Positions 8,556 through 64,000 of a stretch of DNA of 64,000 bases are shown one piece after another. Position 1 is the stretch's first letter; every line of letters begins with the position of its first letter. Origin of the DNA: Thermoplasmatota archaeon (GTDB lineage: Archaea; Thermoplasmatota; Penumbrarchaeia; Penumbrarchaeales; Penumbrarchaeaceae); NCBI GenBank assembly GCA_048569615.1, contig JBLIRK010000001.1, forward strand, positions 18,896 to 82,895, written 5' to 3'. Under the pieces are notes generated by a model. That model saw only the letters and a program-made list of their open reading frames with translations. It was not told where the DNA came from and searched no databases. The position numbers and the translations under genes were made by a program.

Positions 8556-9437
8556 ATGTCCCCAGAAGAGATCCCTCAGGAATTAATGAAGGAGCTCTCG
8601 GATTCTGAAAAGAGACTCAAAGGACTACTCGATAAAAGGGACCACTTCAACGAGGAAGCGAAGGTCATAAGGGAGATGAGGGACGACCTGCACAAGAAGA
8701 GGAAGGGCATCCTGGAACAGATACAGGACATCAGGGCCAAAAGGGGGCAGATCCTGGAGGAGCTCAAGAGCGCCAAGAGCAGGAGGGACGCCTACAACCA
8801 GAGGGTCAGGGATCTTCTCGGAATCAAGAGGCGGACGGATCAGGACATGAAGGAGAGGGACCCCTTCGAGGATATCAGCACCCTGGAGATCGAGCTGAGA
8901 AAACTGGAAGAGACCTATCAGACAAAGGCCCACTCCCTTGAAAAGGAGAGGGAGATAGTCAAGTCCATTGAAGAGAAGAGGAAGAAGCTGGAGAAACTCC
9001 AGGCCAAGGAGGTTACCTTCAAGGCGGAAAGGGTCCAGGCCCAGACCAAGGAGGATGAGATCACCGAGTACAGGAGGCTGGCGGATCAGGAGCACTCCAA
9101 TGTCAAGGAGCTATTCAACAAGCTCCAGGAGATCAACGAGAAGCTGGACGAATACTCGCCGACCCTCGACCACCTCAGGAAGGAGGGCGACAAAAGGCAC
9201 GAGGAGTTCCTCAAGACGAGAGAGCATGCCGATTCCTACCATCAGAAGGCCATGGATCTCAGAGAAAAGGTCCTCCAGCTGAGGCAGGAGAGGGACAAAC
9301 TGAAGAAGGATGCGAGGGAACTCATCGAGGATCAGAACAAGAAGGTAAGGGATGAACTGGAGGATGAGGGAAAGCTCGATGAGGCGGCCGACAAGGCCGT
9401 CGACCTGCTCCTGAAGAAGGGAAAGATCTCACTTTGA
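8556..9437 (+). CDS. Archaeal coiled-coil protein (COG1340-like), paralogue of 58577..59476
   Basis: Almost entirely charged heptad-like sequence (K/E/R/L/Q). The C-terminus ..LLLKKGKISL resembles ..KYKRGEKLSLEEL in the paralogue. Confidence 0.55.
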   Translation: MSPEEIPQELMKELSDSEKRLKGLLDKRDHFNEEAKVIREMRDDLHKKRKGILEQIQDIRAKRGQILEELKSAKSRRDAYNQRVRDLLGIKRRTDQDMKERDPFEDISTLEIELRKLEETYQTKAHSLEKEREIVKSIEEKRKKLEKLQAKEVTFKAERVQAQTKEDEITEYRRLADQEHSNVKELFNKLQEINEKLDEYSPTLDHLRKEGDKRHEEFLKTREHADSYHQKAMDLREKVLQLRQERDKLKKDARELIEDQNKKVRDELEDEGKLDEAADKAVDLLLKKGKISL

Positions 9438-29851: not shown

Positions 29852-29864
29852 ACATGCTCACCAT

Positions 29865-31092: not shown

Positions 31093-31157
31093 TAATATAT
31101 CTTTTACTATTATAGTTAATATTCAACGATAATGGAAAAAAATTTTAACTTTCTCTG

Positions 31158-31595: not shown

Positions 31596-31621
31596 ATATC
31601 AATCCCCAATTTTTCATTTTA

Positions 31622-31768: not shown

Positions 31769-31837
31769 GTATATACATACAATAATGGAAATTTATATCT
31801 ATCTAAGAGCTTTTACGAATGAATATTTTTAATATTA

Positions 31838-33190: not shown

Positions 33191-33205
33191 CTATCTTTTT
33201 ATTTT

Positions 33206-33682
33206 TTAATCTCCCCACCCGTAACTGGCGTAGACGTAATCCCTCCAGACCAGGTCGTCCCAGTAATCATATATGGTTACCTCGTAGTATTCATCGGATT
33301 CTATATCCATATCGTAGATATGGAAAACCATCTCGTCTCCGGAATATGACCAGTAGTCGTAATAGGTGTCGGGATGGACCCTTTCGTTACCGACATAGAC
33401 CTGATAGTCGCTCCAGTAGATCCTTCCGTAATAAACGTATATGACCAGTGTGTCATCCTCGGAATAGAGGTTGGCATTAATATCCCAGTCTTCCCCGTAA
33501 TAATCATCATCGTAGCTCTCCTCCCAGGGATCATCGGGAAATGCGACATAAACCACTATTACGGACACCACGATCCCTGAAACGAAAAATGCCGGAAGCA
33601 GGAAGAAGAAGACCTTCAGCCACATTGGGTCCTGCCCACCAGATTCCCTCTCCATGGAAAGAGCATCGAAAGGATAGTTCAA
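33206..33682 (-). CDS. Paralogue C (divergent) of the small membrane-anchored protein family, with an ectodomain extremely rich in Tyr/Asp/Trp
   Basis: TM LKVFFFLLPAFFVSGIVVSVIVVYVAF. ..INANLYSEDDTLVIYVYYGRIYWSDYQVYVGNERV.. aligns to ..KVNLYxD...IEIE...G.I.WGDY.I.. of A/B. C-terminus ..LVWRDYVYASYGWGD resembles VVWEKDIIAKSY. Confidence 0.55.
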   Translation of the reverse strand: MNYPFDALSMERESGGQDPMWLKVFFFLLPAFFVSGIVVSVIVVYVAFPDDPWEESYDDDYYGEDWDINANLYSEDDTLVIYVYYGRIYWSDYQVYVGNERVHPDTYYDYWSYSGDEMVFHIYDMDIESDEYYEVTIYDYWDDLVWRDYVYASYGWGD

Positions 33683-33697
33683 ATAGCTTTCCGAAAT

Positions 33698-36600: not shown

Positions 36601-37975
36601 CGCATCCGGAGGAGCAGGCCTCGTTTATCTCAATATCATTTATCACGCCCGCATGGATAAAGATGGCCTTCATGTCCTGACCGCCTATGTCGAGGATGAA
36701 GCTCGCATCATCCGCGAACTCCCTCGCGGCCCTGAAATGGGCCAGGGTCTCGACCATTCCGATATCCAAGCCGTAGGCGGCCCTGATCAGGTCTTCGCCG
36801 TAACCCGTCACAGCTGTCTTGGCCACATCAAGCGCTATTCCAACCTCGCAGGCCCTTTCATCAAGCTCTTCCAGGCCCTTCCTGACCGTCCCTATGGGAT
36901 CGCCGCCGTTGGGGGAGTAGAAGCTGAATGCAATGCCGCCTTCTCCATCCGCCAGGACGATTTTTGTCGTTGTGGATCCGGAATCTATTCCAAGGAAGCA
37001 TTTTCCATCCTTCAGGTCACCCACCTCCACGGTCCTTACTATCGGCCTCATCCTCCTCGAATCCCATTCCAGGAACTCGTTACGGTCCCCGAAAAGCGGG
37101 TCCAGCCTGCTGCCCAGGAAGTCGTTCGAATCGGGCTCTCTTCCCAGTTTGTCCTCTAATTCGGAGACAGTTACCTCCATTCTATCTATGTCATCGTACA
37201 TTGCCGTCCCCAGGGCCGGAAACAGCTCCGGATGCTTCGGGTCCGCGACATCCGCTTCCGGGACCTCCAGGACCTCTAGGTAATATCTCCTCAGTTCCGG
37301 CAGGAAGGTGAAGGGTCCTCCGCAGAACAGGACCTTTGGTCTGGGATCATATCCCCTCGACAGGCTTGAAACAGTCTGAAGGGCAACAGAATGGAAGATG
37401 GATGATGCAATCTCCTCCTTCGATATCTTCCTAGCCATTAGGTTTTGTACATCGGTCTTTGCGAAGACGCCGCATCTGGATGCCATGCTGTGATGTCTTT
37501 CGGCCTTCTTCGCCAGGTCGTTAAGGTCAACGAGGGATACATTCAGAAGTGTCGCCATCTGGTCTATGAAAGCCCCCGTGCCTCCAGCGCAACTTCCGTT
37601 CATTCTGATATCTATCCTCATCCTGTCATCGAAGAAGATCATCTTGGAATCTTCCCCTCCAACGTCTATGAGGGTCCTCACATCCGGATGGCGCCTCCTC
37701 ACCACCTCAGCCGCGGCGACAACTTCCTGAACGAAGGGGATCCCGTACCTCTCGGAAACGCCGAAACCGGCGGAGCCCGTGACAGATATGCTGAGCCTGG
37801 TATCTCCAAGCTCCAGTTTTGCATCTTCCAGCATGTCGATCAGTGTCTTGGATACCTGGGCGTTATGCCTTCTGTAATCCCTGTATAGAATTCCATTTCC
37901 ATGGTCCAGGACCACGATCTTGGCTGTTGTGGACCCAAGATCTATGCCGGCCCTCAACGCCTTTTGATCTGCCAA
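33698..37975 (-). CDS. Giant fusion protein: two BadF/BadG/BcrA/BcrD (HgdC-type) acetate/sugar-kinase-fold ATPase domains plus a C-terminal HgdB/D-component-like (DUF2229) domain ('CoA-substrate-specific enzyme activase' family)
   Basis: GIDLGSTTAKIVVLD and FLGIDSGSTTTKIVLADGEG phosphate-1 motifs. Cys pairs typical of the bridging [4Fe-4S] site. Long C-terminal domain. 1425 aa, no internal stops. Confidence 0.75.
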   Translation of the reverse strand: MADQKALRAGIDLGSTTAKIVVLDHGNGILYRDYRRHNAQVSKTLIDMLEDAKLELGDTRLSISVTGSAGFGVSERYGIPFVQEVVAAAEVVRRRHPDVRTLIDVGGEDSKMIFFDDRMRIDIRMNGSCAGGTGAFIDQMATLLNVSLVDLNDLAKKAERHHSMASRCGVFAKTDVQNLMARKISKEEIASSIFHSVALQTVSSLSRGYDPRPKVLFCGGPFTFLPELRRYYLEVLEVPEADVADPKHPELFPALGTAMYDDIDRMEVTVSELEDKLGREPDSNDFLGSRLDPLFGDRNEFLEWDSRRMRPIVRTVEVGDLKDGKCFLGIDSGSTTTKIVLADGEGGIAFSFYSPNGGDPIGTVRKGLEELDERACEVGIALDVAKTAVTGYGEDLIRAAYGLDIGMVETLAHFRAAREFADDASFILDIGGQDMKAIFIHAGVINDIEINEACSSGCGSFIETFANNLGESVEDFTRMACESKRPYDLGTRCTVFMNSKVKQALREGASVPDISAGLAFSVVKNCLYKVLKIKDPDVLGDNIVVQGGTFRNPAVHRAFELLLGKELICSDSPELMGAYGAALTAADSYSKDAQASTFVGFGSLDMATENTACFIRCGGCRNSCTVTQFTFGNGKLFYTGNKCEKIFNNAGTGTRKGCNLADIKLDLLFDRKLSPEGLPLGRIGIPRVLNIYENFPFWATLLRESGFEFVLSPPSTPEINELGTRSTMSENICFPAKLVNGHVKKLAEMKVDRIFLPMVLFEEQEFEGQLDSFNCPVVSGYSDVVRSALDPEERLGIPFDSPTISFKDRRLLRKGCMKYLKGLGVEGKKAREAFEKALREQISYKESVREKALGIISEAKKEKRLVVLLVGRPYHIDHLINHKLTEMLAGLGADVITEDSVPVSDRTLADVGVLTQWQYPNRVYKAVQWAKEQDNVEVVQLNSFGCGPDALVCDEARTLLAEAGKNHTLLRIDEVSSPGSIRLRLRSMMESLEIRGLGKRFRPMKRKVTPAYTIQDRKRKIIAPFFSRFYSPLLISSFSSLGYDLEVLPPPDRESVEVGLKYCNNEICYPAVIVIGDILKALLSGRYDQRDVAAGITQTGGQCRASSYLSLLQKGLVSAGFEDVPVITLSMSSKQLNYQPGFRINKRKMVLQGLHGVLFADAVMQMYYSTAVREINKGEASDLSDKYIQMAGRAIEFGREGELPELLEQAVLEFNRVETDDEEHPTIGLVGEIYAKYNPFGHFFIVDYMVEQGIDVIVPPITDFFAQEYLNVRFHADNDTGNRGLKTVLSYPEEWIARYYMRMYEKVRAKFKYYRRNHYVGSLAKKSRDVVSLVDQFGEGWLIPGEIGAFAEDDVNNVICVQPFGCISNHIIGKGVEKALKKKYPDLNVLYLDMDPGTSEVNLYNRLNFVIRTAREDLLARTRAA

Positions 37976-39473: not shown

Positions 39474-41126
39474 TCAAGGATACTTCGCCCTCTTCCTTCT
39501 CCTTGCCAGGGAGAATACCGATATTATGACCACAACGACCAGGGCTATCACCCCGAGTGCGATGCCTCCGTATTTCATTATCGAGTACTCGTCCATTGAG
39601 ATGGCGGGCTCTGTGGGCTCCGGGGTCGGTTCTTCCTGTACCTTGCCGCTCCCGTGCCCCGCATAATCGAAGATCAGCTCGATCACCATATCCTCCACAT
39701 CCTCCTCGAAGAGGAATGCCGGATCTGCATCCGCAAGCATCACGAAGACCTCGAAATTCACATCTAGCCCCATCTCCATAAGCTCCCCCAGATCTCCACG
39801 TAATGTGAGCCTGCTCCCGGACCTTTCGACTGTCGTATACCAGAAATCACCGCTTGCGAAAATGCTGTTTGAGGCAAGGGCGTTGTTAGGTTCATACTGG
39901 AGTATGGAGCCGTCCTCGATATCCTCCTTGTAGTAGTTCCTCTGATTGTGGCTGTCATCGGCTAGTATGTATGCAGTGGCTCCAGTCCATCCTCTCACAG
40001 GGCCTCCGGTGTTTATCTCGATGACAAGATCCTCCCCGTCCCTCCGGACATCCATGGTCCTTACATCCACCTGGGGATTTCTCCCTATGTTATAGTTCAT
40101 CATATCCCAGGTAGCTCTGATATAGACCTCGTCGCCCTTGTCGTCGGTGTAGGACCTCCTGCAGAGGTCCGCGTCGAGCAGCTCGATGGGAATTTCCGGC
40201 TCGTCGTCGTCAGGCGGCAATATGTCATCATCATCAGCCGGAGGCGGGACAGGTGCCGAACCCATGGTAATCGTAAACACCGCATTGTGGAGCTCCCTGG
40301 TCCTTTGGGCGTCATAAAGCTGAAGTTCGAGCCCCACCTCCGCTTCCTCCTCCGCATAGGAAGCATCAAGGTAAAGGGTGAGCTCCCCCAGCTTCTCTCC
40401 GTATTCCCCGGTGTATTCGATGTCATGCTCTATATCGATGTCCTCCCTTGCTGCATCGCCGATCCCTTCAATATCAACCGAAAGCTCTGCATCATAAACG
40501 TTCCCGTTGTTGAGGATGTCGATGGAATACTCCAGCTCCTCTCCAATTTCGATGTAGACGGCATGCTCCGATTCATCAAAACCAGCGGAGACAACGGGTG
40601 AGATGAAAAGCGGAGAGGAACCCGCAGGTGTTGTTCCGCCCATTATCCCCGGGGAATAGGACCATCTTCCAAAGATCGATATCCAGTTTTCACCGGCAGG
40701 TACATCCTTATCCAGTCTTAGCTGCAAAGTGTAGTTCTGGGTCCGGGTCTCCCCTGGCATCATTTCCCGGAACACCATCTGTTCGGGTGTGAACTGATAT
40801 TCGATTTCCAATTCGCCGTAGATATCGTTCGCTATACCGGCAAACAAGACCACGATTAACTCCTGGACCATCACGGGAAACCGGGAGCTCACTTCCACTG
40901 ATCCCTCAACGGTGATGGTCGTGGTCTTCACAGCCGGTGAGTCCTCATCGAAATAATGGATCCCGGTTGACAAATCCAGTGGAGCATCCTCCCGATACCC
41001 GGGATAATCAAGGACCACTGAGATTGTTATCTCCGGAGTCCCTACGGCCTCAGATTCATTGTTAAATACTGGAATGGCGGCGATCACGATCAATATCAAG
41101 ACAGTGGCTGCAGCGGCTCTCCTCAT
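39474..41126 (-). CDS. Secreted protein (550 aa) with a C-terminal TM anchor and an RRRKRAKYP tail
   Basis: Signal peptide MRRAAAATVLILIVIAAIPV. Acidic ectodomain. TM GIALGVIALVVVVIISVFSLA. Confidence 0.5.
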   Translation of the reverse strand: MRRAAAATVLILIVIAAIPVFNNESEAVGTPEITISVVLDYPGYREDAPLDLSTGIHYFDEDSPAVKTTTITVEGSVEVSSRFPVMVQELIVVLFAGIANDIYGELEIEYQFTPEQMVFREMMPGETRTQNYTLQLRLDKDVPAGENWISIFGRWSYSPGIMGGTTPAGSSPLFISPVVSAGFDESEHAVYIEIGEELEYSIDILNNGNVYDAELSVDIEGIGDAAREDIDIEHDIEYTGEYGEKLGELTLYLDASYAEEEAEVGLELQLYDAQRTRELHNAVFTITMGSAPVPPPADDDDILPPDDDEPEIPIELLDADLCRRSYTDDKGDEVYIRATWDMMNYNIGRNPQVDVRTMDVRRDGEDLVIEINTGGPVRGWTGATAYILADDSHNQRNYYKEDIEDGSILQYEPNNALASNSIFASGDFWYTTVERSGSRLTLRGDLGELMEMGLDVNFEVFVMLADADPAFLFEEDVEDMVIELIFDYAGHGSGKVQEEPTPEPTEPAISMDEYSIMKYGGIALGVIALVVVVIISVFSLARRRKRAKYP

Positions 41127-43671: not shown

Positions 43672-45867
<2,196 letters not shown>

Positions 45868-52339: not shown

Positions 52340-52456
52340 TGGCGGGTCCGAGGGGATTCGAACCCCCGGCCATCTGGTTAAAAGCCAGACGCTCTTTCTA
52401 GGGAAGATGGCGGACACTAAACCACCATTCAACCTACCTAGCTGAGCTACGGACCC
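52340..52456 (-). tRNA. tRNA-Lys (anticodon UUU) with an encoded CCA and a putative ~40-nt non-canonical intron in the D-arm
   Basis: Minus strand: GGGTCCG-TA-GCTC-AGCTAGGTA-[40 nt]-GAGC-G-TCTGG-CTTTTAA-CCAGA-TGGCC-GGGGG-TTCGAAT-CCCCT-CGGACCC-G-CCA. The acceptor and anticodon stems pair perfectly. Intron coordinates are about 52395..52434. Confidence 0.6.
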
Positions 52457-55457: not shown

Positions 55458-56471
55458 TCATTTCCTTTCCAGAAGGAGAAGATGGTCCCTTTCCTTGACC
55501 TTCATGCTGTCCAGCTCATCGAAGCTGTGGACCTTGTCCTTGCGGACAATACCGATGACAACCGCTCCCTTGAGCTTCTTCGGAAGGGCGCCCAGCTCGT
55601 CGGGTCTTGCCTCCCTCTCGCTAATGTACATGCCGGCGCTTGCGGTCATCACGTCCTCCAGAAGGTGGACCACATTTGGCTGCGTGGTCGCTGTCGCCAT
55701 AAGGTTGCCGGATGTGACCGCAGGTGCTATTATTACCTCCACGCCCGATTTCTTCAGGAGCTTGATGTTCTCGAGCTCCGTTACCCTGGATATTATCCTG
55801 ATGCCGGGATTGAGATACCTGGCCGTAAGTGCGATAAGGATGTTCGAATCGTCCTTCCTCGTAGCTATTATCAGCGAGGACGCCTTCTTTACAACCGCAT
55901 CTTCCAGTATCCCTTCCTTGGTGGCATCGCCGTTGATGGAAACGTACCCCTCCTCGGCCGCCTTCTGGGCCGCCTCGGGATCTGTTGTTATCACCACGAT
56001 GTTGCTCTTCTTGTTGCCCTTTGCCACGAGCTCCCTGGCCGCCGATTCCCCCGTTGTTGAGAAACCGGCGATGATGGTATGCCCGGAAAGCCTCTTCTGG
56101 ATCGCCTTCATCATGAACGCCTCCCTGTACCTCTCGAAAATGAACTGATAAGCCGTTCCTACTATCACGAACCACATTGCCGCCCTGCCGAAGGTGATGA
56201 AAACGGTGTCGATGATCCTCGCATCCTGGGTGACCGGAACGATGTCACCGTACCCGGTGGTGGTGATGGATACCACAGTGAAATAGACGGCATCGAGGGG
56301 GGATATCCTGTCGTCCCTGGAATCCTCGTATCCCGAGCGGTCCAGGAACACTATCGTCGAAATGGCGGCTATGACCAGAAGGAGAGCTCCGAACCTGATG
56401 AGCACCGTCTTCAAGGTCGCTCTTCTCTTCTTGTAAATGAAGTTCGCCTTCTCCCTCAGAGGCCCTGCCAA
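55458..56471 (-). CDS. MthK-like potassium channel: 2-TM pore domain with a TTGYGD selectivity filter fused to an RCK/TrkA-N domain
   Basis: ..YFTVVSITTTGYGDIVP.. RCK GxGxxG-like HTIIAGFSTTGESAA. Confidence 0.85.
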   Translation of the reverse strand: MAGPLREKANFIYKKRRATLKTVLIRFGALLLVIAAISTIVFLDRSGYEDSRDDRISPLDAVYFTVVSITTTGYGDIVPVTQDARIIDTVFITFGRAAMWFVIVGTAYQFIFERYREAFMMKAIQKRLSGHTIIAGFSTTGESAARELVAKGNKKSNIVVITTDPEAAQKAAEEGYVSINGDATKEGILEDAVVKKASSLIIATRKDDSNILIALTARYLNPGIRIISRVTELENIKLLKKSGVEVIIAPAVTSGNLMATATTQPNVVHLLEDVMTASAGMYISEREARPDELGALPKKLKGAVVIGIVRKDKVHSFDELDSMKVKERDHLLLLERK

Positions 56472-56569
56472 GATGCTCCCCCGTTAATATCCAGTAAACG
56501 GAAAGGCTCCCCTGATTTAAAAAAGTAGTTGGAAAAAAAGAATGATTTTTAATGGATGCTTGATCTTTC

Positions 56570-58567
56570 CTACTGGTCGGCGTCCCCGTTGTGCCAGGGA
56601 TCGAAATCACCCTGACCGCCGCTTGGGTCTATGGCGGGCCGGAAGGCCGGGTCGCCGTAAACAGCGAAGAAGGTTACCTCGTACCAGTCCACCTCCCCGT
56701 TGGGTTTCATGGGAGAAGGCTGGTTGTTTGGAGGATATCTGATATACCGGTTCTCGGACCACTGCACAGCCTTTCCGACAGTCCCGTGGTCCCCCGGGTG
56801 GTTCAGGATACCGTCCCAGACAAATGCATACCATGCATCGTTGTGGTCCCACTGGTGGTCGTCTATGAAAGGCAGATACTCGGCCGGGATCGAGGTCAGG
56901 TCCTGACCGATATTGGAGAAGCTCACCTCGGTTGCCCCGACCAGAACCGCGGGACCGGCAGAGAGATAGTTGAGCGTGAAGAGCTTGTCGAAGGCGACAT
57001 CGTTTGCCGGGTCCGTTCCGGGACCGTGTCCGTATATCTTTCCGTTGAGACAGCTCACGAAGAATGCCACCTGGGGCGGTATATCCATATTGGCTGCGTC
57101 CGAGTACCTGAGCTGGTGCTCCTCTCCGTTGGGTCCGTAAACCCTGATGCCGTACAACGACCCAGTATCCGATCCGTGCCCCCTGTATGCAACATATCCC
57201 GAGACCTCGCAGATCTCGGAGATGTCGTTCTCCATGGAATTAATGACCCCGTCGAAGAACTTGTTCCCGGTATTGAACGGGCCCACGTAGTCGTAGGAGA
57301 ATCCCGCATCCTCGTAGTCGTTGCAAATCCACCTTCCCGGTGTTGCCTGCATCCTCTCGTAGGTTATCTCGAAACCGGAAAAGGACGCACCGTGCTTCTT
57401 CCACTCCTTCTCGTGGGTGCCCCCTGCAACATCGCGGTACTCCGCCGCCACCGTATCCGAGTAATCGTCGAAGAGGTAGGTCTTGAGAAGCTGGTTCGAT
57501 GCCAACGATGCATCATACTGGATTATCCTTCCAACCGCGGCATCCATCTGGGAGTCGTCTGTGTCGAGGAAGCCGTAGATCACATCGGAGTTGACGATAT
57601 CGCCTTCCATCCCCCCGGACCTGACAAGGAACTGGGGTATCGCAGGGGCGGACCCTGCAAGGGTTATGTACTCAGCAGGTCCGAACTCCGTATTAATCTG
57701 TTTCATCTTCTCATGCACGCCGACAGCTCTCCTGTTGGGGGAGAGCTCCATATCGAGCTCCCATTCGACACTGTCCACGGGGGTCGTATTGGTGATGACG
57801 AAGGCATCGTGATATGCCGCCATCTGGGCGGCCATGACTGACATGTCCGGTGTGAAGAAGGCGTCGTCGTATGTATCGTAATCAGGTGTTCCGCGGATCG
57901 ATTCCACGGAATGGTCCCTGGGATTGGCCACGATGACATAGTCAGCCGTGAGGTCCATGGTTCTGAGCTCGGCCCACACCTGCTCCTGGCTGTTGAAGGT
58001 CGACCCGCCCTTCATCATTCCCAGGTTGTTCTTCTTGGCATAGACCGTGGACCAGAGCGCCTCCTCGTAGGATGCAACGGTCATCATCCCGCTGAACCCC
58101 TTGAACCTGGCAGATACGCCATTTATGAGCGGATAGACGTTCTCCTCCTTGATCGGGGAAACACCGACATCCCCCAGCTGTGTATTTAATCGGGTGAGCG
58201 TGCCTTCTTCGTTGGTGAATAGGATCTTTTCCCTGTCCGTCTTCAAATTTGACAGCGTGAACTGCAACTGCCTCGAGAGCCCGCCCTCGGGATCGCAGAT
58301 GACCAGAGGGTGGTATTCTCCGCCGTGGAACTGAACTGTCGTCAGGGTCGCGATCGAGAGCTGCTCCTCCTCCGAGGAAGGATAGTCGGTGATGATCATG
58401 AAATCCGCCGGGAGTTCGATATCAGGCAAGTACTTCCATTCCTTCTCCTTCTCCTCCCTTGACATGATATACAGAGCTAATCCGCCGATCAGGATGATCA
58501 CCGCTGCGGCCGCGAATGCTATCCTGAACATAGAAGGCTTGGAAAGCTTCTTAACGGAATTCTCCAT
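56570..58567 (-). CDS. N-terminally membrane-anchored extracellular clan-CD cysteine peptidase-like protein (C25/gingipain or C11-like)
   Basis: TM FRIAFAAAAVIILIGGLALYIM. Candidate catalytic His in ..GYVAYRGHGSDTG.. and Cys in ..VAFFVSCLNGKIYG.. after hydrophobic strands, as in clan CD. Confidence 0.45.
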   Translation of the reverse strand: MENSVKKLSKPSMFRIAFAAAAVIILIGGLALYIMSREEKEKEWKYLPDIELPADFMIITDYPSSEEEQLSIATLTTVQFHGGEYHPLVICDPEGGLSRQLQFTLSNLKTDREKILFTNEEGTLTRLNTQLGDVGVSPIKEENVYPLINGVSARFKGFSGMMTVASYEEALWSTVYAKKNNLGMMKGGSTFNSQEQVWAELRTMDLTADYVIVANPRDHSVESIRGTPDYDTYDDAFFTPDMSVMAAQMAAYHDAFVITNTTPVDSVEWELDMELSPNRRAVGVHEKMKQINTEFGPAEYITLAGSAPAIPQFLVRSGGMEGDIVNSDVIYGFLDTDDSQMDAAVGRIIQYDASLASNQLLKTYLFDDYSDTVAAEYRDVAGGTHEKEWKKHGASFSGFEITYERMQATPGRWICNDYEDAGFSYDYVGPFNTGNKFFDGVINSMENDISEICEVSGYVAYRGHGSDTGSLYGIRVYGPNGEEHQLRYSDAANMDIPPQVAFFVSCLNGKIYGHGPGTDPANDVAFDKLFTLNYLSAGPAVLVGATEVSFSNIGQDLTSIPAEYLPFIDDHQWDHNDAWYAFVWDGILNHPGDHGTVGKAVQWSENRYIRYPPNNQPSPMKPNGEVDWYEVTFFAVYGDPAFRPAIDPSGGQGDFDPWHNGDADQ

Positions 58568-58576
58568 GGGAACACC

Positions 58577-59476
58577 TCATTTCATCTCGCCGGACTCCAT
58601 GACCAAGCTCAGCTCCTCAAGAGATAGCTTTTCACCCCTTTTGTACTTTGCCACCGCATCCTGGGCCTTCCTGTTCATGTCGGACCTCATCCTCTCCTTG
58701 GGGGTCTTCTTGAACTCCTTCTTCCACTCGTCTATCTCGCGGTAGAGGTTCTGGATCTTCTTTCTCCTCTCCCATACCTGTTTCTTCATGGTCTTGAGCT
58801 GCTTCACGGCCTCGATGTATGCCTTGTGTTTGTCCTGGGCCTGCTTCCTCACATCGTCCCTCTGGGACCAGAGATCCCTTGCCTCTACCAATCCCTCGTG
58901 GGACTGCTCCTTGAGCTCCCCGATCTGTGATTCCATCTCCGTTAGCTCTTTGTTGTACTTGGCGAGGTCCACTTCCTTGACCTTAATGATCTCCTGGTGG
59001 ATGGTGTCGGCCCTGGCCTTGACGACGAGCCGGTCCCTGAGCTCGAAGAGATACTGGTAAAGGAACAGCTCGTTCTTGAGGTTCACATCGGAGGTCAGAA
59101 GGTTCTCCTTGGTGGAGCGGTAATTCTCCAGGAGCCTGTCCAGGGTGCCCCTGCTCGCTTCATTGTGGATGTCGCGGAGCTTCCTGAGCTCTCCTATTTT
59201 CTGGAGGTAGGGCTGCATCTCCTTGAATACCTTCTTTTTCTCCTCGTTGGTCTCTTCGATGTTATCCCAGTAGTCCTTCCTCTCCTTCATTATCTCCTTT
59301 GGCTTCCTGGAGAGTTCCTGTACCTTCTCGTTTAGCTTGTCCCTGCTCTCCTTCAGCGAATCAACCTCGGTGATCTTGTTCTGAACGCGCACCTGGATGA
59401 TGTCCGCCTCTTCCATTATTTCGGAGATCTTCTCCCTGATATCCCTTATCTTCTGGGCTATCTCGAAGTTCTGCAT
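58577..59476 (-). CDS. Archaeal coiled-coil protein (COG1340-like), paralogue of 8556..9437
   Basis: Charged heptad-rich 299 aa. C-terminus KYKRGEKLSLEELSLV. Confidence 0.55.
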   Translation of the reverse strand: MQNFEIAQKIRDIREKISEIMEEADIIQVRVQNKITEVDSLKESRDKLNEKVQELSRKPKEIMKERKDYWDNIEETNEEKKKVFKEMQPYLQKIGELRKLRDIHNEASRGTLDRLLENYRSTKENLLTSDVNLKNELFLYQYLFELRDRLVVKARADTIHQEIIKVKEVDLAKYNKELTEMESQIGELKEQSHEGLVEARDLWSQRDDVRKQAQDKHKAYIEAVKQLKTMKKQVWERRKKIQNLYREIDEWKKEFKKTPKERMRSDMNRKAQDAVAKYKRGEKLSLEELSLVMESGEMK

Positions 59477-60759
59477 CAGGCACCACCCCCCTCATCTGTC
59501 GGAGCCTTTTCCTCATCCAAGACCCCGGTACTTCGATCATCGCCCTGACCTCCGGATCCCCCCGACTCCTTGTGCTCAGCTTCGGGCATCTGGCCTGTGG
59601 CTTCACTCCGTCCGGCGTCCTTCGGCCCACTTGATCTGACATTGTGCCTTCTCCGATCCCGCGGCTCGCTCCTTTCCTTCGGCTGATCCTTCTCGGCCTG
59701 TTTCTCTTCCTGCTCTCCCTGCTGGCTCTCATCCCTCTCCTTGAATATCGAGAGAAGGAACTCGCGTATCTGGTCGAGGCTCCTTTTCGAATCCTCCTCG
59801 TCCTGCTTGGAAGCAGTCTCGATCTGATTTGACCAGAATGTGTGCATCTCCTTGTGAAGGTCGATCCTTCTCTTCAGCCATCCTTTCTTGGATTCCCTTT
59901 CCCTCAGCTGCTTCTTTGCATCGATGAACTTTCCATGGTGTTTCTGGCTCTCCTCGACATTCTCGAGCATCGCCCTATGGTAGTCCTCTATCTGCATCAG
60001 ATTGCTCCCCATCTCCTCCTGGATCTCAGTGAGCCTGGTCTTGATCTCCTCGGGGGTTAATCCATCGGATATGGACCTCATCTTATCCATGGTGTCCCTC
60101 AACTCGTCCAGAAGCCTCCTTTCGGTCTCGATGGTAATGGCTTCGGTCTCGAGCTTCCATTCCAGGTCTCTGGAGAACTGCGAGTACATGGCCACATCCT
60201 TTCTGTGGGACTTCAGCTTCTCCTCCTTTTCCAGAAGGTCGAAGAACTCGTTCCTGAGCTCCTTGTTCCTGTCCTTCAGGGACTTCCTGCACCCTTTCAG
60301 CTTCGCCACTTCCTCGTTTATCTCGTCCCTCTTGGACTTCTCCTCGTCCTTTACCTCGTCGGCCTCCACGGGCTCGGATGCCATTTTGTTCAATTCATCG
60401 GAGAAATTCTGGACAAGTTCCGAATGCTTCCTGACGAGAGCTTCCACAATGCTTCTGCGGTCGAGGAATTCGAATCCCTCCAGGGGATCCCTGGACTCGA
60501 AGGGAGCGAATTCGGGGGTGTCCTTGCTCTCTTTCTGCTCAGCAACCTCGCTCCCCGGACCCTCTCCGGCTTTTCCGCTCGGCGAAGCAACCTCCGCATT
60601 CGCAGGCGGAGCAGGATCCTGCGGTCCGCCGGGTGAGCCGGTACTTTCAGGCGCAGTTGTTTCCTGTTCTGTTTTTTCTGGCGCATGAGTTTCTGGTTCA
60701 ACCTCTGGACCTTCTTCTGCCGGGGGCAGATGTTCATTCTCGATCTCATCTTTGTTCAT
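59476..60759 (-). CDS. Coiled-coil protein with an acidic/Pro-rich low-complexity N-terminus and a basic C-terminal tail
   Basis: N-terminus ..PEVEPETHAPEKTEQETTAPESTGSPGGPQDPAPPAN.. Long K/E/R-rich helical body. 1-nt overlap with the downstream gene. Confidence 0.5.
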   Translation of the reverse strand: MNKDEIENEHLPPAEEGPEVEPETHAPEKTEQETTAPESTGSPGGPQDPAPPANAEVASPSGKAGEGPGSEVAEQKESKDTPEFAPFESRDPLEGFEFLDRRSIVEALVRKHSELVQNFSDELNKMASEPVEADEVKDEEKSKRDEINEEVAKLKGCRKSLKDRNKELRNEFFDLLEKEEKLKSHRKDVAMYSQFSRDLEWKLETEAITIETERRLLDELRDTMDKMRSISDGLTPEEIKTRLTEIQEEMGSNLMQIEDYHRAMLENVEESQKHHGKFIDAKKQLRERESKKGWLKRRIDLHKEMHTFWSNQIETASKQDEEDSKRSLDQIREFLLSIFKERDESQQGEQEEKQAEKDQPKERSEPRDRRRHNVRSSGPKDAGRSEATGQMPEAEHKESGGSGGQGDDRSTGVLDEEKAPTDEGGGA

Positions 60760-60777
60760 GGGGGGATCCGCTCCTGT

Positions 60778-62373
60778 TCATTCATATCCAAGCAGGTCAT
60801 CGGAGTTCTCGTTCCAGTAATTATAAGGGGAATACTGCTGACTCTGTGATTCCGACATCTCGTTGAGGAGTCCCGATTGGTAATGGCCGAACCTTTCCTT
60901 GATCTGTTCCTCAGCGGACTTGCTCTTCTTCACCGCCAACTCCACATGGCGGGATGTGATCAATTCAGAGCCCTCGGCCTTTGCAATGTCGCCGGCCGCC
61001 CTGATGACGCCCCCCATGTCCCTTAATCTAAGGGTAAGGGATCTCTTCTTCCTGTCGAATCTCAGTGCTCTTCTCCTTGCTTCCTTTAAAAGTGAATCGA
61101 TCCCGGTCCTGTCCACATGGGGGATCCTTCCATCCATGCGGACCTCCTGGGAAATGAACTGAACGAACTTCATCCTGTTCCGGTTGTTATCCGGCATTGT
61201 TGTCTCCACGAGCACCTCGTAACCCGAACCCGTAATCCTTGACCTGAGTGGGGATATGATATGAGGTAGGTCCTGAATGTTGCAGGCCCCCACGAATACG
61301 AAATCGCAGGGGACGCCGTCCACCTTGACGCTCGCCCCCGCACTCTGGGGATTCCTGCCGGATATGGAAAAATGCTTCTCCTGCATAGCGGTCAGAATGA
61401 ACCTCTGCAGGTGCCCCAGCTGGGGGAGCTCATCTATGAAAAGGACACCCTCGTGTGCCTCGTGTATCGCCCCGGGGACGACCCTCTCATACGGAGGTGT
61501 TCCAAGCCCCTTGTGGCCGCCGTAAGGATCATGACGCACGTCTCCGAGAAGCTCCGTCTCAGAGGCCCCCGTGGCCATTATGAAGGTATTCCTCTTGAGG
61601 GGTATCAGGACCTTTTTTGGGGAGCTCTTCTCCTTCTCTCGCCTGGCTTGCAGGGCTTTCTCATCCACGACCCTTATCTTTGGACCCGACGCCTCGTAGA
61701 CCACGACCTCCTCCTTTCCATCGACCAGCCGGGTCGTCTGTACCCTAGCCTTGTCCGCTCCCAGCTGGTTCAGGGTAACCTTCAGGATATCCTCTATACC
61801 CTGGAGCATATTGTTCATGTTCATGTCCACCCTGGCCACCTTGGGGGAGCTGGATGGGGTCTTATAGGCATTGCAGTTCGGGCATATGGTTTGGTCCCGG
61901 GGTGAATACGTTCCGCATTTGGAGCAGCGGTATCCCAGCTTCTCCGCAACCTCGACCGGAGCGTCCACGGGAGATATCAGATGCTCCCGGGTCAGTTTGC
62001 TCCTCTGATCCTCCTCCTCGACCTCATCCTTTGTCCGTGTCTGAATGAAGGGTCTTTCGGGGGATTCCGGATTAGAGACAACATAGACCTGGACATTGGG
62101 TGTCGGAAGATGGGCGGCCAATGCCTGGGCGATCATTGATTTGCCAGTTCCGGGAGGACCCACAAGCAGCAGATGTCTTCTCTGGTAGGCGGCAACCTTG
62201 GCCAGCCCGATAATTTCATCCTGTCCGATAACCCGGGAAAGCGGATCCGGAGGGATGATGATCTGGGACGTGTCCGACATATCGTTCAGGTCGAATCCCC
62301 TCTCCGGGTCGAGGGTGATTTCCCCATCGGTTCCTTTCCTTCCGCTTCCCTGTTTTCGTTTCGGTCTCTTCAT
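60778..62373 (-). CDS. Lon-related AAA+ ATPase (LonB-type ATPase module) with an inserted zinc ribbon, no TM segments and no recognisable Ser-Lys protease domain
   Basis: Walker A LLLVGPPGTGKSMIAQALAAHLP. Insertion with CSKCGTYSPRDQTICPNCNAYK. LonB-like ..HDPYGGHKGLGTPPYERVVPGAIHEAHEGVLFIDELPQL.. No GPSAG-type protease motif in the C-terminal ~150 aa. Confidence 0.6.
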   Translation of the reverse strand: MKRPKRKQGSGRKGTDGEITLDPERGFDLNDMSDTSQIIIPPDPLSRVIGQDEIIGLAKVAAYQRRHLLLVGPPGTGKSMIAQALAAHLPTPNVQVYVVSNPESPERPFIQTRTKDEVEEEDQRSKLTREHLISPVDAPVEVAEKLGYRCSKCGTYSPRDQTICPNCNAYKTPSSSPKVARVDMNMNNMLQGIEDILKVTLNQLGADKARVQTTRLVDGKEEVVVYEASGPKIRVVDEKALQARREKEKSSPKKVLIPLKRNTFIMATGASETELLGDVRHDPYGGHKGLGTPPYERVVPGAIHEAHEGVLFIDELPQLGHLQRFILTAMQEKHFSISGRNPQSAGASVKVDGVPCDFVFVGACNIQDLPHIISPLRSRITGSGYEVLVETTMPDNNRNRMKFVQFISQEVRMDGRIPHVDRTGIDSLLKEARRRALRFDRKKRSLTLRLRDMGGVIRAAGDIAKAEGSELITSRHVELAVKKSKSAEEQIKERFGHYQSGLLNEMSESQSQQYSPYNYWNENSDDLLGYE

Positions 62374-62417
62374 CCTTTCACCGAACTGTCCTATGGTATT
62401 CCACTATGTGGCATCTT

Positions 62418-63752
62418 TCACATGTTTAGGTCGCTCTTTGAAAGTACGAGCACACCTTCAGGCTCCTTGGTGAGGTTGCCCTTTTTGGAGCCGACCAGGT
62501 ACTTGACCTTCTGTTCGAAGGCGATATCCAGGAGCCTCTGTGAGATTATCCCGTCGAATACGACCGCATGTATCTCGGACGGCGGTGTTTTCAGGGTATC
62601 CGCAAGCTGCCTTACCGCCAGCTCCTGGACCACCTCGCCGTTCTCGTTCAAAAGCATCGCTTTCAAGGTCCCGGATAGGGTCTTAAGGATGTCCTTGTAT
62701 CTGGTCATCTCGGCTCCCATCTGATCGGATTCCTGCTTGGGTTTGCCTGTAACCGCCTTGATGGGAGGTTTCTCCGGTGCCGGCGGCTGAACCGGTTCCT
62801 TCTGCTCCGGCTCCTTCTTCTTCTCCTGCTCCTTCTTGTACGGCTGTTCCGGCCTTAGTTCCTTCTTCTCCTCCTCGACATGCTTCTTCTCGGTCCTGGG
62901 AATGTCGAAGCGGAGATCGTTCATCTCCATGTACTGCTCCACGGGTATCTTGTTCCTGAGGGCCTTTATTATCTGCTTCTGGGTGAGCTCCTCGACCTCG
63001 AGGGATTTCGGAGCCCTGGCAACGAAATCTATCTCCGCCACCTGGAAGAGTTCCTTCAGGATGAGCTCGCCGCCCCTGTCGCCGTCGACGAAGGCTGTAA
63101 CAACCTTCTCATTGGAGAGCTTCTGAATGGTGACCGGGACGTTGGTACCTCCGATGGCCACCGTGTTCTTTATACCGTACTTCAACAGGTTGATCACGTC
63201 CGATCTACCTTCCACCAGAATTATCGCATCGGATGTGTCCACATTCGGCCCCGCGGGGCATTTGTCCTCGCCGTAATTGACAACTTCATCTATCTGGACC
63301 GCCTGTCTGACCGAGTCGGTAAGGTCGAGGCCTCCGGTCTTCGTCTGGTCCAGGAGTCTGCTCAGAAGCTCCTTGGCCCTGTCCACTATCTTCTGCTTCT
63401 TCTTTATCCTGACATCGTCTATCTTTTCGATGGAGATCTTCGCCCTGCAGGGTCCGATCCTGTCGATGGTCTCCAGGGCGGCCGCGAGTATGGCGGTCTC
63501 AACCTGGTCCAGACTTGAGGGGAGCAGTACCGTCCCTTCGGATTTGCCCTTCTTCGAGTTAATATCCACTTCTATCCTGCCCATCCTCCCCGTCTTCTGG
63601 AGATCCCTGAGGTCCAGTTCATCACCGAGCAGACCTTCGGTCTGGCCGAATATGGCCCCGACCACATCGGGTTTCTCCACCACGCCGTCCGCCACAAGTT
63701 TTGCCTCTATGAGGTATTTTGTCGTTGCTGGATCGAGATTCATTTGATACAC
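62418..63752 (-). CDS. dnaG: Archaeal DnaG primase (TOPRIM)
   Basis: ..KYLIEAKLVADGVVEKPDVVGAIFGQTEGLLG.. archaeal DnaG N-terminus. TOPRIM ..ILVEGRSDVINLLKYGIKNTVAIGGT...DGDRGGELI.. Confidence 0.9.
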   Translation of the reverse strand: MYQMNLDPATTKYLIEAKLVADGVVEKPDVVGAIFGQTEGLLGDELDLRDLQKTGRMGRIEVDINSKKGKSEGTVLLPSSLDQVETAILAAALETIDRIGPCRAKISIEKIDDVRIKKKQKIVDRAKELLSRLLDQTKTGGLDLTDSVRQAVQIDEVVNYGEDKCPAGPNVDTSDAIILVEGRSDVINLLKYGIKNTVAIGGTNVPVTIQKLSNEKVVTAFVDGDRGGELILKELFQVAEIDFVARAPKSLEVEELTQKQIIKALRNKIPVEQYMEMNDLRFDIPRTEKKHVEEEKKELRPEQPYKKEQEKKKEPEQKEPVQPPAPEKPPIKAVTGKPKQESDQMGAEMTRYKDILKTLSGTLKAMLLNENGEVVQELAVRQLADTLKTPPSEIHAVVFDGIISQRLLDIAFEQKVKYLVGSKKGNLTKEPEGVLVLSKSDLNM

Positions 63753-64000
63753 CTTCTTTTTAATTGATTTTCAGGTTGCTTCGAAAAGGTAATACCGATG
63801 ACGAAGACCAGATAGGCCAAGGATCCATTCCTTCCATTTCCTCTGCGGAACCAACTCTTTTGCCCTGCCCCAAACGGAGCCGGGTTAGGATGATTGGTGA
63901 TCGTGATGTGATTTTATCATGGTCCAACCCGTCAAGGTAGGTACCTTTTCAACCTTGGATGATGGATTTTCTATAAATAGGTTTCCAAGGGGTATTATAT

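Follow-up and report, generated by a model that had tools for sequence, protein, structure and literature searches.

We were interested in what an ATPase of the LonB clade could be doing when it carries neither a protease domain nor a membrane anchor, and in which partner it might work with. Such a protein, of 531 residues, is encoded at 60778..62373 on the minus strand of a 64,000-nucleotide stretch of DNA from a Thermoplasmatota archaeon (the window) and is identical to NCBI MFW3145239.1. The initial annotation had described a LonB-like ATPase with an HDPYGG signature, followed by two coiled-coil proteins (here CC1 and CC2), and all three open reading frames lie exactly where it had placed them (CC1, 59476..60759, and CC2, 58577..59476, both on the minus strand). 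Profile and structure matches agree on the LonB assignment. Against the NCBIfam model of archaeal LonB (TIGR00764), the protein scores E = 5.8e-103 (345 bits, under the cutoff of 516.6), with residues 260-495 as the best-scoring stretch. The match to LonB from T. onnurineus (3k1j, deposited as ATP-dependent protease Lon) reaches E = 1e-83 in two aligned blocks, residues 32-112 and 261-493. The AF2 model (pLDDT 85) finds 3k1j and 4zpx as its best Foldseek matches, and the AAA+ core shares 45–50% identity with genuine LonB proteases.

The protein bears the motif sequence GDVRHDPYGGHKGLGTPPYERVVPGAIHEAHEGVLFIDE, and its ATPase and pore-loop motifs, located by translation and alignment, show little or no variation across 48 diverse members of the family. 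G72, P74, G75, G77 and K78 of Walker A (GPPGTGKS, residues 72-79, 62137..62160), D314 and E315 of Walker B (VLFIDE, residues 310-315, 61429..61446), and N365, R377, S378 and R379 within the segment from sensor-1 Asn365 to the PLRSR arginine finger (residues 365-379, 61237..61281) are invariant. The core of pore loop 1, defined by alignment to 3k1j and 4zpx (HDPYGG, residues 281-286, 61516..61533; all four motifs on the minus strand), keeps H281, P283 and G285 throughout and Y284 in at least 90% of the sequences; Tyr284 pairs with the Phe of HDPF in T. onnurineus LonB, and the substrate-contacting segments of the two proteins are nearly identical. The sensor-1 and arginine-finger roles are probable ones, assigned by analogy to N473 and R484 of EcLonA, whose roles are given in PMC9569914. 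Judged from its sequence, the protein is a complete LonB-type AAA+ unfoldase module, with Walker A and B, sensor-1, arginine finger, sensor-2 region and pore loop 1.

Compared with LonB, the ATPase lacks both the S16 protease domain and the membrane anchor, and instead possesses a ribbon/β-domain and a C-terminal tail. The first of these lies in an insertion between Walker A and Walker B (residues 113-260, 61594..62037, minus strand), which does not align to T. onnurineus LonB and falls where the membrane anchor is found in LonB (PMC9569914). Its AF2 secondary structure runs in the order helix, Cys4 ribbon, disordered linker, three-stranded β unit and helix. No transmembrane segment was found in the insertion, where the maximum Kyte-Doolittle mean over 19 residues is 0.33. 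The zinc ribbon, CSKCGTYSPRDQTICPNC (residues 150-167, 61873..61926, minus strand), had already been proposed as the replacement of the LonB transmembrane insertion. Its four cysteines, C150, C153, C164 and C167, are invariant in the 48 diverse sequences, which include members from Thorarchaeota, Micrarchaeota and Altiarchaeales.

The absence of a protease motif, also claimed at the outset, is borne out by a Pfam profile scan, in which the ATPase gave no match to Lon_C (PF05362) and longer LonB relatives, run as a positive control, matched at 1e-30 to 1e-37. The stretch after the LID domain comprises just 45 residues. Among the genes downstream of the inspected family loci, which vary by lineage, no Lon_C was found either. 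The protein is a LonB-clade AAA+ ATPase without a protease domain, degenerate or otherwise; neither such a remnant nor membership of another AAA+ clade, the two outcomes that the initial annotation had named against itself, was found. Among 600 stretches from species-level genomes, at least 580 hold pattern-confirmed relatives, 80 of which we inspected in detail. The family has a cultured member in Aciduliprofundum boonei (ADD09201.1 and WP_008084136.1) and extends to Thorarchaeota, Altiarchaeales, Micrarchaeota and Anstonellales. These soluble LonB paralogues make up a large archaeal family of strong conservation, apparently unstudied so far. A truncated LonB pseudogene, or a LonB with its protease half in a separate gene nearby, could be read from the score below the TIGR00764 trusted cutoff and from the match, which stops at position 402 of the 608 in the model, with nothing matched beyond. 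However, hundreds of species share this architecture of 470–540 residues (55–80% identity), in which the catalytic residues never vary; conservation extends to the C-terminus, and no adjacent Lon_C gene occurs in any inspected context. Decay or splitting is effectively refuted by these conservation data.

As for the partner, the gene immediately upstream encodes an archaeal DnaG, a Toprim protein of 444 residues (62418..63752, minus strand; 541 bits to NCBIfam NF003108, cutoff 300, together with Toprim Pfam matches), and is the first gene of the unit. The initial annotation had mentioned it only in passing, although dnaG lies directly upstream of the ATPase gene and co-directional with it in 76 of the 79 testable species genomes. 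The median gap is 5.5 nt, and many junctions overlap by 4 or 1 nt. The pairing recurs in all five contig contexts and at 51 further metagenomic loci. Two contexts from Thorarchaeota show the order dnaG-ATPase-pelota with gaps of 0–128 nt; in a third, an OsmC gene lies between dnaG and the ATPase gene in an otherwise unchanged order. On one contig from Altiarchaeales, dnaG shares the strand of the ATPase gene and precedes it by about 4 kb. The pairing is found throughout Thermoplasmatota, in Thorarchaeota and at a few other sampled loci, and no neighbour family other than dnaG is found again from lineage to lineage. The deeply conserved partner gene of the ATPase, across several archaeal phyla, is dnaG and not the coiled-coil genes.

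At some Thermoplasmata loci, the neighbours of dnaG also include Gins51 and a small Toprim gene, which gives the neighbourhood a flavour of DNA replication rather than proteolysis. Together with the obligate dnaG partnership, these genes could be taken to mean that the hexamer moves along DNA or RNA in partnership with the Toprim primase, in a pairing likened to bacterial DnaB-DnaG, and that the ribbon binds nucleic acid. Zinc ribbons are frequent nucleic acid binders, and RuvB, ComM and MCM appear among the remote structural neighbours in Foldseek. We consider such a nucleic-acid motor very unlikely, given the 45–50% identity of the AAA+ core to genuine LonB proteases. Pore loop 1 (GDVRHDPY/F), like the loop after it, hardly differs from its counterpart in T. 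onnurineus LonB, and the pore loops have gained no basic residues. The helicase-type structural matches, with E values of about 1e-7 and a TM-score of about 0.25, fall far short of the LonB match at 1e-35.

The C-terminal tail (residues 487-531, 60781..60915, minus strand) stands in place of the S16 protease domain. It contains conserved SPYxYWN and DD segments, becomes disordered over residues 515-531 (pLDDT < 50 in the AF2 model) and ends in Gly-Tyr-Glu-COOH (60781..60789, minus strand), a tripeptide resembling a full or partial HbYX motif, with which proteasome activators dock. Of 120 family clusters, 115 have Tyr as the penultimate residue; the residue after it is free, and the linker before the motif varies. 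An aromatic residue at -2 is present in 72 of 80 species genomes. Terminal variants at the same position, GY-x, MF-x, MY-x, YFF and SYM, all keep that aromatic: MF-x and MY-x occur in Methanomassiliicoccales-type and Methanomethylophilus-type members, YFF in Thorarchaeota, GYV in Altiarchaeales and SYM in other lineages. By sequence, most family tails (small/hydrophobic-Tyr/Phe-X-COOH) count as HbYX under the operational definition of PMC3493965, which asks for Phe or Tyr at -2 and, before it, a residue that is small or hydrophobic. In contrast to the textbook motif, most members have Gly at -3, a "partial HbYX" like that of Rpt1. According to the title finding of PMC12352868, an occupied hydrophobic (Hb) pocket is enough to open the gate; on that account, GY-x tails might bind without opening the gate.

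Our preferred reading, to which we tentatively assign a probability of about 0.45, is a stand-alone, DnaG-coupled unfoldase whose substrates go on to a distinct partner, with the 20S proteasome as the most plausible one. The ATPase would form a hexameric ring as LonB does, with the zinc-ribbon/β-domains crowning the substrate-entry face at the site of the LonB membrane anchors. These domains would recognise a client or adaptor, for which DnaG or a ribonucleoprotein bound to it is the likeliest candidate, although neighbouring genes need not encode a complex. ATP hydrolysis would thread the polypeptide past the Tyr284 pore loops, and the six disordered tails, leaving the ring at its exit face, where LonB carries its own protease, would dock it onto the partner, most plausibly in the α-ring pockets of the 20S proteasome. 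The putative docking would have parallels in the HbYX tails of PAN and Cdc48 and in HslU with HslV. PMC3493965, whose screen covered classical AAA proteins only, reports PAN to be missing from all Thermoplasmata. Among the 26 window ORFs scanned, we found no gene for the 20S proteasome, PAN or a canonical LonB.

The same operon could also encode a protease-independent remodeller, which we regard as a somewhat unlikely but substantial alternative. The ring would then act as a segregase or chaperone for DnaG assemblies, such as those of the RNA exosome cap, of stalled ribosomes and no-go decay, or of the primase and replisome, and the aromatic tail would bind DnaG or another non-proteolytic partner. 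This would suit a dnaG-ATPase operon that is tight, spans phyla and frequently has overlapping starts and stops, as well as the entry of pelota into it in Thorarchaeota. The aromatic tail covaries with dnaG adjacency, in a comparison confounded by phylogeny (115 loci adjacent and 5 not with the aromatic; 5 adjacent and 15 not without it), and a DnaG-binding tail would explain the covariation just as well. Gly at -3 is a poor Hb residue, and the conserved SPYxYWN and DD segments besides the last three residues hint at a larger or different tail interface. A precedent exists in the archaeal AAA ATPase Cdc48a, which associates with the RNA nucleases RecJ3/4-aRNase J (PMC10470531). However, docking into α-ring pockets has its hallmark in a motif fixed at the very end of the chain, with an aromatic at -2 and any residue in last place (PMC3493965), and the tail is located exactly at the protease site of LonB. 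The loss of the fused protease with full retention of the LonB translocation loops suggests that a threaded substrate needs a destination.

Downstream, the initial annotation had tentatively joined the ATPase, CC1 and CC2 into an AAA+ remodelling machine with filament-like partners and a role in chromosome biology or division. CC1 (427 residues) is an acidic protein of net charge -35 whose conserved helical core is flanked by ends of low complexity. CC2 (299 residues) is modelled by AF2 as a long antiparallel coiled-coil hairpin (pLDDT 88; helices 3-108 and 133-255, about 105–120 residues per arm) that resembles SMC arms; its Foldseek matches are only generic SMC-arm-like ones (E > 1e-3). Weak matches to SMC and Rad50 coiled coils also occur. 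The ATPase-CC1 gap is 18 intergenic nt rather than the 19 reported, and the 1-nt overlap of the CC1 stop with the CC2 start (TGATG) is confirmed. The overlap is kept in the five orthologous loci with both boundaries resolved, suggesting a CC1-CC2 heterocomplex. Yet the order ATPase-CC1-CC2 is confined to the closest relatives (loci L003-L006 and L009-L014, ATPase at least 67% identical), which are also the only ones with CC1 orthologues, and since their whole neighbourhood is syntenic, it carries no independent weight. About 90% of the sampled family lacks such downstream genes; in other Thermoplasmatota, unrelated genes (PurS, GNAT, methyltransferase) follow the ATPase. CC2 has just 32 detectable homologue clusters, all at least 49% identical except for one weak match (24%).

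The description of both proteins as COG1340-like, with a third paralogue at 8556..9437, gained no support from our comparisons. In our Pfam scan, only that third protein clearly belongs to DUF7121 (44.9 bits); CC2 reached 15.1 bits (gathering cutoff 29) and CC1 gave no match, and profile-profile probabilities of 4–23% reveal no detectable homology among the three. Orthologues of CC1 and CC2 are nevertheless assigned to DUF7121 by the precomputed matches of a newer Pfam release, so a relationship may still hold. With FtsZ encoded elsewhere in the window, unlinked to the ATPase, and a membrane-anchored peptidase in the same block, we judge a coiled-coil machine unlikely.

This peptidase, a C25 (gingipain-like) homologue (56570..58567, minus strand; PF01364, 63.7 bits) with an N-terminal membrane anchor (19-residue hydropathy 2.61 at residue 16), follows CC2 after a 9-nt gap with a GAGGTG motif and co-occurs with CC1 and CC2 in relatives. 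All three follow the ATPase only in the clade of the window, EX4484-6-like Thermoplasmatota, and are a clade-specific block inserted in the dnaG-ATPase unit, outside the conserved core machine. The initial annotation had overlooked both the conserved aromatic tail and this last gene of the unit. From dnaG through the ATPase, CC1 and CC2 to C25, the gaps are 44, 18, -1 and 9 nt, and a Shine-Dalgarno-like motif precedes each internal gene (AGGAG for CC1). Oligo-T is an archaeal termination signal, and the T7 and T6 runs at 56519..56539 (minus strand), the sole intergenic oligo-T on the coding strand from 56300 to 64000 in our sequence scan, probably terminate the five-gene unit.

The gene for the LonB-type ATPase (60778-62373, minus strand, 531 residues) is the second of five tightly packed genes on the minus strand. 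It is preceded by dnaG (62418-63752) and followed by the two coiled-coil genes CC1 (59476-60759, 427 residues) and CC2 (58577-59476, 299 residues) and, as the fifth and last gene, by the gene for a C25-like peptidase (56570-58567), a gingipain-family homologue with an N-terminal membrane anchor. The intergenic spacings are, in that order, 44, 18, -1, and 9 nt. As archaeal signals differ from bacterial ones, the junction sequences and T-runs were inspected directly. Shine-Dalgarno-like motifs (GGTGA, AGGAG, and GAGGTG) precede the internal genes with the exception of CC2, the start of which overlaps CC1 within TGATG. Between 56300 and 64000, noncoding oligo-T runs on the coding strand are found only 31-51 nt past the stop codon of the peptidase gene. 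Because of this position of the oligo-T runs and the tight packing, we infer a single five-gene transcription unit extending from dnaG to the peptidase gene. The peptidase, which was absent from the initial annotation, accompanies CC1 and CC2 also in related genomes. The first gene encodes a genuine archaeal DnaG, with a score of 541 bits against the equivalog model NF003108 (cutoff 300) and matches to Toprim_4, Toprim, and Toprim_2 accounting for the central Toprim domain.

The ATPase matches the archaeal LonB model TIGR00764 with an E-value of 5.8e-103 and 345.5 bits, which is under the cutoff of 516.6 bits, and the best-scoring stretch stops at position 402 of the 608 model positions. The LonB structure from Thermococcus onnurineus (3k1j) aligns over two separate stretches, 32-112 and 261-493, with an E-value of 1e-83, and the LonB_AAA-LID domain (PF20436) scores 23.7 bits (cutoff 22.4). 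We modeled the protein with AlphaFold2 using 48 sequences as input (mean pLDDT of 85). A Foldseek search with the model returned the LonB structures 3k1j and 4zpx at the top (E-value of 6.5e-35, TM-score of 0.88-0.89 against the isolated ATPase domain), then LonC (4fw9, the second-best structural match, about 1e-13), with RuvB, ComM, and MCM far behind. The classical AAA clade was ruled out, as the best matches are Lon-family proteins; the PAN and Cdc48 models cover only the Walker A segment with E-values of about 2e-3. All catalytic motifs are invariant or nearly so, including Walker A (GPPGTGKS), Walker B (VLFIDE), sensor-1 (N365), the arginine-finger segment PLRSR, the sensor-2 region TLRLRD, and the pore-loop-1 core HDPYGG, in which Tyr284 is the alignment counterpart of the phenylalanine in the HDPF of LonB. 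Residues K78, D314, E315, N365, and R379 are unchanged in all 48 sequences compared. Judged by these motifs, the protein is predicted to be a functional AAA+ ATPase and not a degenerate one like LonC.

The protease domain is missing. A Pfam scan found no match to Lon_C (PF05362) in the ATPase, whereas longer relatives gave Lon_C at 1e-30 to 1e-37 with the same library as a positive control, and beyond the LID domain the protein has just 45 more residues. A hidden, degenerate, or split protease was also considered and rejected: Pfam and NCBIfam searches revealed none, and the downstream genes, which vary by lineage, include no Lon_C. The insertion between Walker A and Walker B (residues 113-260) occupies the site at which LonB carries its membrane-anchoring insertion with transmembrane helices (PMC9569914). 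In the ATPase, this insertion is hydrophilic (maximum KD19 of 0.33) without the LonB-type membrane anchor, and the protein is therefore presumably cytosolic. In the AlphaFold2 model, the insertion consists of a helix, a Cys4 ribbon, a disordered linker, a three-stranded β-unit, and a second helix, and the ribbon cysteines (C150, C153, C164, and C167) are invariant. The initial annotation, which had described a LonB-like ATPase with a zinc ribbon and without a protease domain, was thus right in this respect; the profile search that it had proposed for the C-terminus detected no degenerate protease domain, and the protein does not belong to a different AAA+ clade.

Thousands of database proteins match the ATPase. 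The best 120 of them comprise 491-549 residues with at least 57% sequence identity, none with Lon_C, and those with named sources come from Thermoplasmatota or related archaeal metagenome-assembled genomes (MAGs). Among the 600 pattern-matching stretches listed from one-genome-per-species contigs, at least 580 were confirmed as relatives. The 80 relatives inspected belong to Methanomassiliicoccales, Methanomethylophilaceae, DHVE2/Aciduliprofundum, Proteinoplasmatales, and EX4484-6-type MAGs. An exhaustive HMMER search and a profile search extended the family to remoter protease-less relatives of 440-540 residues in Thorarchaeota, Altiarchaeales, Micrarchaeota, and Anstonellales. The Cys4 ribbon is present in all 120 distant relatives examined and the HDPY/F-G motif in 119 of them. 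Two database relatives of about 442 residues (P0137 and P0150) have kept the zinc ribbon and lost both the Walker B Asp-Glu pair and the HDPYG pore loop; both probably represent paralogues without activity, and their loss of motifs indicates that decay within the family is detectable where present. We also scanned eight unusually long relatives for Rosetta-stone fusions with Toprim or DnaG and found none with Toprim; these proteins are canonical LonBs with Lon_C, contain inteins, or carry N-terminal extensions without any other Pfam match.

The proteins are already public under generic or misleading names. Current labels are "ATP-binding protein," "AAA family ATPase," "Lon protease family protein," "ATP-dependent (Lon) protease," and "peptidase," of which the protease labels mislead because the protease domain is missing. 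The orthologue from the cultured Aciduliprofundum boonei (ADD09201.1/WP_008084136.1) is labeled "AAA ATPase central domain protein" or "ATP-binding protein." An incomplete literature search, which can give absence of evidence only, found no description of protease-less zinc-ribbon LonB homologues, of a linkage between dnaG and Lon, or of the ATPase tail.

The neighbor conserved along with the ATPase is dnaG. It lies directly 5′ of the ATPase gene and co-directionally in each of the five contigs looked up. The same arrangement was seen in 76 of the 79 species genomes that could be tested (median gap of 5.5 nt, with many overlaps of -4 or -1) and in 51 of 80 metagenomic loci that had been retrieved with a profile of distant members. 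Thorarchaeota show the order dnaG, ATPase, and pelota in three contexts, two of them tight (L173 and L174, gaps of 0-128 nt) and one (L089) with an OsmC gene separating dnaG from the ATPase gene. In Altiarchaeales, dnaG is on the strand of the ATPase gene but 4 kb upstream of it; in one unassigned lineage, the order is a Toprim gene, a 90-residue ORF, the ATPase gene, and Hjc; and dnaG is not near the ATPase gene in Micrarchaeota-type loci. When we clustered the ORFs around 164 loci, dnaG (126 loci) was the sole neighbor recurring across lineages; GNAT, PLD, UPF0020 methyltransferase, M50 peptidase, Gins51, and a small Toprim protein appeared in subsets only. By this conserved gene order, the ATPase gene and dnaG form an ancient operon.

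Several of the subset neighbors have arrangements of their own. A GNAT acetyltransferase gene is convergent to the ATPase gene in 69 loci. In Thermoplasmata, an M50 peptidase gene lies near the ATPase gene in 18 loci, a gene for a small Toprim-only protein (about 130 residues) just 5′ of dnaG in 30 loci (e.g., at L016:3284-4639), and a divergently oriented Gins51 gene at the same place in 18 loci. The three Thorarchaeota contigs (L089, L173, and L174) have a gene for an M50 peptidase with a PDZ domain about 4.4 kb downstream on the opposite strand. In seven Micrarchaeota-type loci (L090, L094-L097, L101, and L114), the ATPase ends in G(P/S)ETA/V or SGTA without an aromatic residue, and dnaG is consistently missing within 6 kb upstream.

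The two coiled-coil genes have a much narrower distribution. The initial annotation had proposed a AAA+ remodelling machine composed of the ATPase and two filament-like partners. However, CC1, CC2, and the C25 peptidase gene are found 3′ of the ATPase gene only in the closest relatives (L003-L006 and L009-L014, with at least 67% identity of the ATPase). Since the entire region from Trm56 and ArsR through Sua5 and M24 peptidase is syntenic in these relatives, the arrangement counts as a single evolutionary observation. Elsewhere in the phylum, the genes downstream of the ATPase include PurS, a convergent GNAT, and the UPF0020 methyltransferase, among others, and CC2 has only 32 homologue clusters. 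The gene order on which the proposal rested is thereby confined to one clade, and the coiled-coil partners can be a clade-specific elaboration at best.

In the predicted model of CC2 (pLDDT of 88), helices 3-108 and 133-255 pair into a long antiparallel hairpin, for which Foldseek found in the PDB only generic antiparallel coiled coils such as SMC arms, all with E-values above 1e-3. CC1 has a net charge of -35 and low-complexity ends of variable length around a conserved helical core. The 1-nt overlap of CC1 and CC2 is kept in the five orthologous loci with both ORF boundaries resolved, and this conservation suggests co-translation and perhaps a heterocomplex. Both proteins had been regarded as COG1340-like, with a third coiled-coil paralogue in the window. 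The third gene (8556-9437, plus strand) is a genuine DUF7121/COG1340 gene with 44.9 bits, unlinked to the ATPase locus and flanked by an AIR-carboxylase-like gene and a gene for a xylose-isomerase-like TIM-barrel protein. The proposed paralogy is less clear. Against PF23435.1 (DUF7121), which has a cutoff of 29, CC1 gives no match and CC2 reaches 15.1 bits, and comparisons among the three proteins were not significant by BLASTP and reached hhalign probabilities of at most 23%; however, precomputed matches to PF23435.3 in a newer Pfam release list DUF7121 for orthologues of both CC1 and CC2. JGI labels these orthologues "coiled-coil DUF342 family." Like COG1340/DUF7121 proteins, CC1 and CC2 are charged helical archaeal proteins. 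DUF7121 was mentioned by no paper in our literature search, and COG1340, which has no known function, appeared once in a relevant context as an archaeal coiled-coil cluster of unknown function (PMC1322226) and in three other matches on unrelated topics.

Residues 515-531 of the ATPase, which are disordered in the AlphaFold2 model, form a C-terminal tail ending in GYE. The penultimate residue is tyrosine in 115 of 120 family clusters, and the final residue is free (E, Q, G, R, V, or W). Methanomassiliicoccales-type and Methanomethylophilus-type tails end in MF-x or MY-x, those of Thorarchaeota in DYFF or DYFL, those of Altiarchaeales in GYV or GYI, and those of another clade in RSYM, so that the variants MF-x, MY-x, YFF, GYV, and SYM have an aromatic residue at position -2 throughout. 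Other conserved segments of the tail are SPYxYWN and DD. An aromatic residue fixed one residue from the free carboxylate is the behavior expected of a terminus-anchored docking motif, a reading suggested by the fact that flanking residues change while the aromatic position holds. In archaeal AAA proteins, the HbYX motif has been defined operationally by Phe or Tyr at -2, preceded at -3 by a small or hydrophobic residue and followed by any final residue (PMC3493965). By this sequence criterion the family tail qualifies, although glycine at -3 in most members makes it a "partial HbYX" only, as in Rpt1. PAN has been reported missing from all Thermoplasmata in a survey that examined only classical AAA proteins (PMC3493965), so that the Lon-type family would have escaped it.

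Leaving the LID domain, the tail would emerge on the side of the ring that carries the protease in LonB, a geometry right for docking onto another peptidase as in HslU/HslV. HslU (ClpY) is a stand-alone HCLR-clade unfoldase with an I-domain between Walker A and B, and its C-terminal tails insert into the proteasome-type peptidase HslV and thereby activate it. By analogy, HslU may be the closest guide to how the family works, even though it belongs to another subfamily, the ATPase being unmistakably Lon-type, and its I-domain is unrelated to the insertion of the ATPase. ClpX is likewise a AAA+ unfoldase without a protease that uses a Cys4 zinc domain for recognition of substrates and adaptors and docks on a separate peptidase. 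However, its zinc domain is N-terminal and not inserted, its subfamily differs, and it docks by IGF loops and not by C-terminal tails. Archaeal LonB (MEROPS S16 subfamily B; T. onnurineus, 3k1j and 4zpx) shares with the ATPase the AAA+ module, the LID domain, the long pore-loop-1 with GDVRHDP followed by an aromatic residue, and an insertion at the same site between Walker A and Walker B. Unlike LonB with its S16 Ser-Lys protease and transmembrane anchor, the ATPase has neither, and instead possesses the Cys4 zinc ribbon with the β-unit, the disordered aromatic-X tail, and the operon with dnaG. PAN, Cdc48/VAT, and AMA (PMC3493965) are also ring ATPases with a flexible tail, and the last three residues of the family fit the same definition; they are classical AAA proteins, whereas the ATPase is of the Lon branch, has glycine at -3 in most members, and lacks the N-terminal coiled-coil/OB domain or double-psi-barrel N-domain of that group. 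LonC from Meiothermus taiwanensis (4fw9; PMC3391209) is a Lon-family member that has likewise lost one of two activities, in the opposite direction: it kept the protease with a dead ATPase, whereas the present family has an intact ATPase and has lost the protease.

Taken together, the protein is shown to be a soluble paralogue of LonB that keeps the unfoldase module intact, carries a zinc ribbon in its insertion, lacks the protease, and ends in a conserved aromatic tail. The ATPase would assemble as a hexamer, the zinc-ribbon and β-domains at the entry face would recognize DnaG or DnaG-bound clients, the polypeptide would be threaded through the pore, and the tails would dock onto a separate partner, for which the 20S proteasome is the most plausible candidate. 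We give roughly one chance in five to the full proposal of a widespread, previously unrecognized archaeal module in which DnaG recruits a soluble LonB-derived unfoldase and HbYX-like tails dock the 20S proteasome. The main rival reading has the same motor operating without any protease and remodelling DnaG assemblies. The aromatic tail covaries with dnaG: among loci with the aromatic residue, dnaG is adjacent in 115 and not in 5, and among those without it, adjacent in 5, near in 2, and not in 15. This covariation, confounded by phylogeny, would be compatible as well with a DnaG-binding tail. A scan of 26 ORFs of the window, including the largest, detected no gene for PAN, 20S, or canonical LonB.

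For the ATPase, a setting in RNA and ribosome quality control is attractive because of the pelota operon in Thorarchaeota and the known role of DnaG in the exosome cap (PMC4227792). A setting in replication is kept open by the Gins51 and small Toprim neighbors in some Thermoplasmata. If the full proposal of a DnaG-recruited, proteasome-docking unfoldase holds, RNA decay and ribosome rescue would be physically coupled to protein degradation, as the dnaG-ATPase-pelota operon hints, giving archaea a counterpart of Cdc48-dependent ribosome-associated quality control and the PAN-less Thermoplasmatota a second proteasomal ATPase. The family bears on whether archaeal DnaG acts as an exosome subunit, a primase, or both, and on how the proteasome is fed in PAN-less archaea, where Cdc48 is the only factor implicated to date (PMC3493965). 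Both questions gain a concrete handle, cheap to test, from a conserved unfoldase with translational coupling to dnaG across whole phyla and a tail resembling that of proteasome activators. The family is a large one with an unusually clean genomic signal, and the hypotheses lend themselves to direct tests. The unfoldase would bring a Lon-derived member into the group of proteasomal or partner-docking AAA+ motors and show Lon evolving toward HslU and ClpX, from a fused to a detachable unfoldase.

Several other features of the window were noted. Three large ORFs on the minus strand, 5852-7618, 14028-17612, and 39474-41126 (588, 1194, and 550 residues), have no Pfam match at E-values of 1e-5 or below; at 1e-3 in NCBIfam, the first two have no match and the third only one of 20 bits (cutoff 70). 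The only structured RNA found in the window is a tRNA (52350-52425). In a 1425-residue protein (33698-37975, minus strand), a DUF2229 CoA-enzyme-activase domain is fused to two BcrAD/BadFG ATPase modules. The region 24000-34000, with a GC content of 0.40-0.44 against about 0.53 elsewhere in the window, may be a horizontally acquired island and contains a gene for a PF09826 β-propeller protein of 716 residues (24180-26330). The ORF of rpoA2, encoding RNA polymerase A″ (43672-45867, minus strand, 731 residues), matches TIGR02389 at residues 356-723 only; on the N-terminal side, its frame stays open for about 355 further residues, beginning right after the rpoA1 stop codon at 45868.
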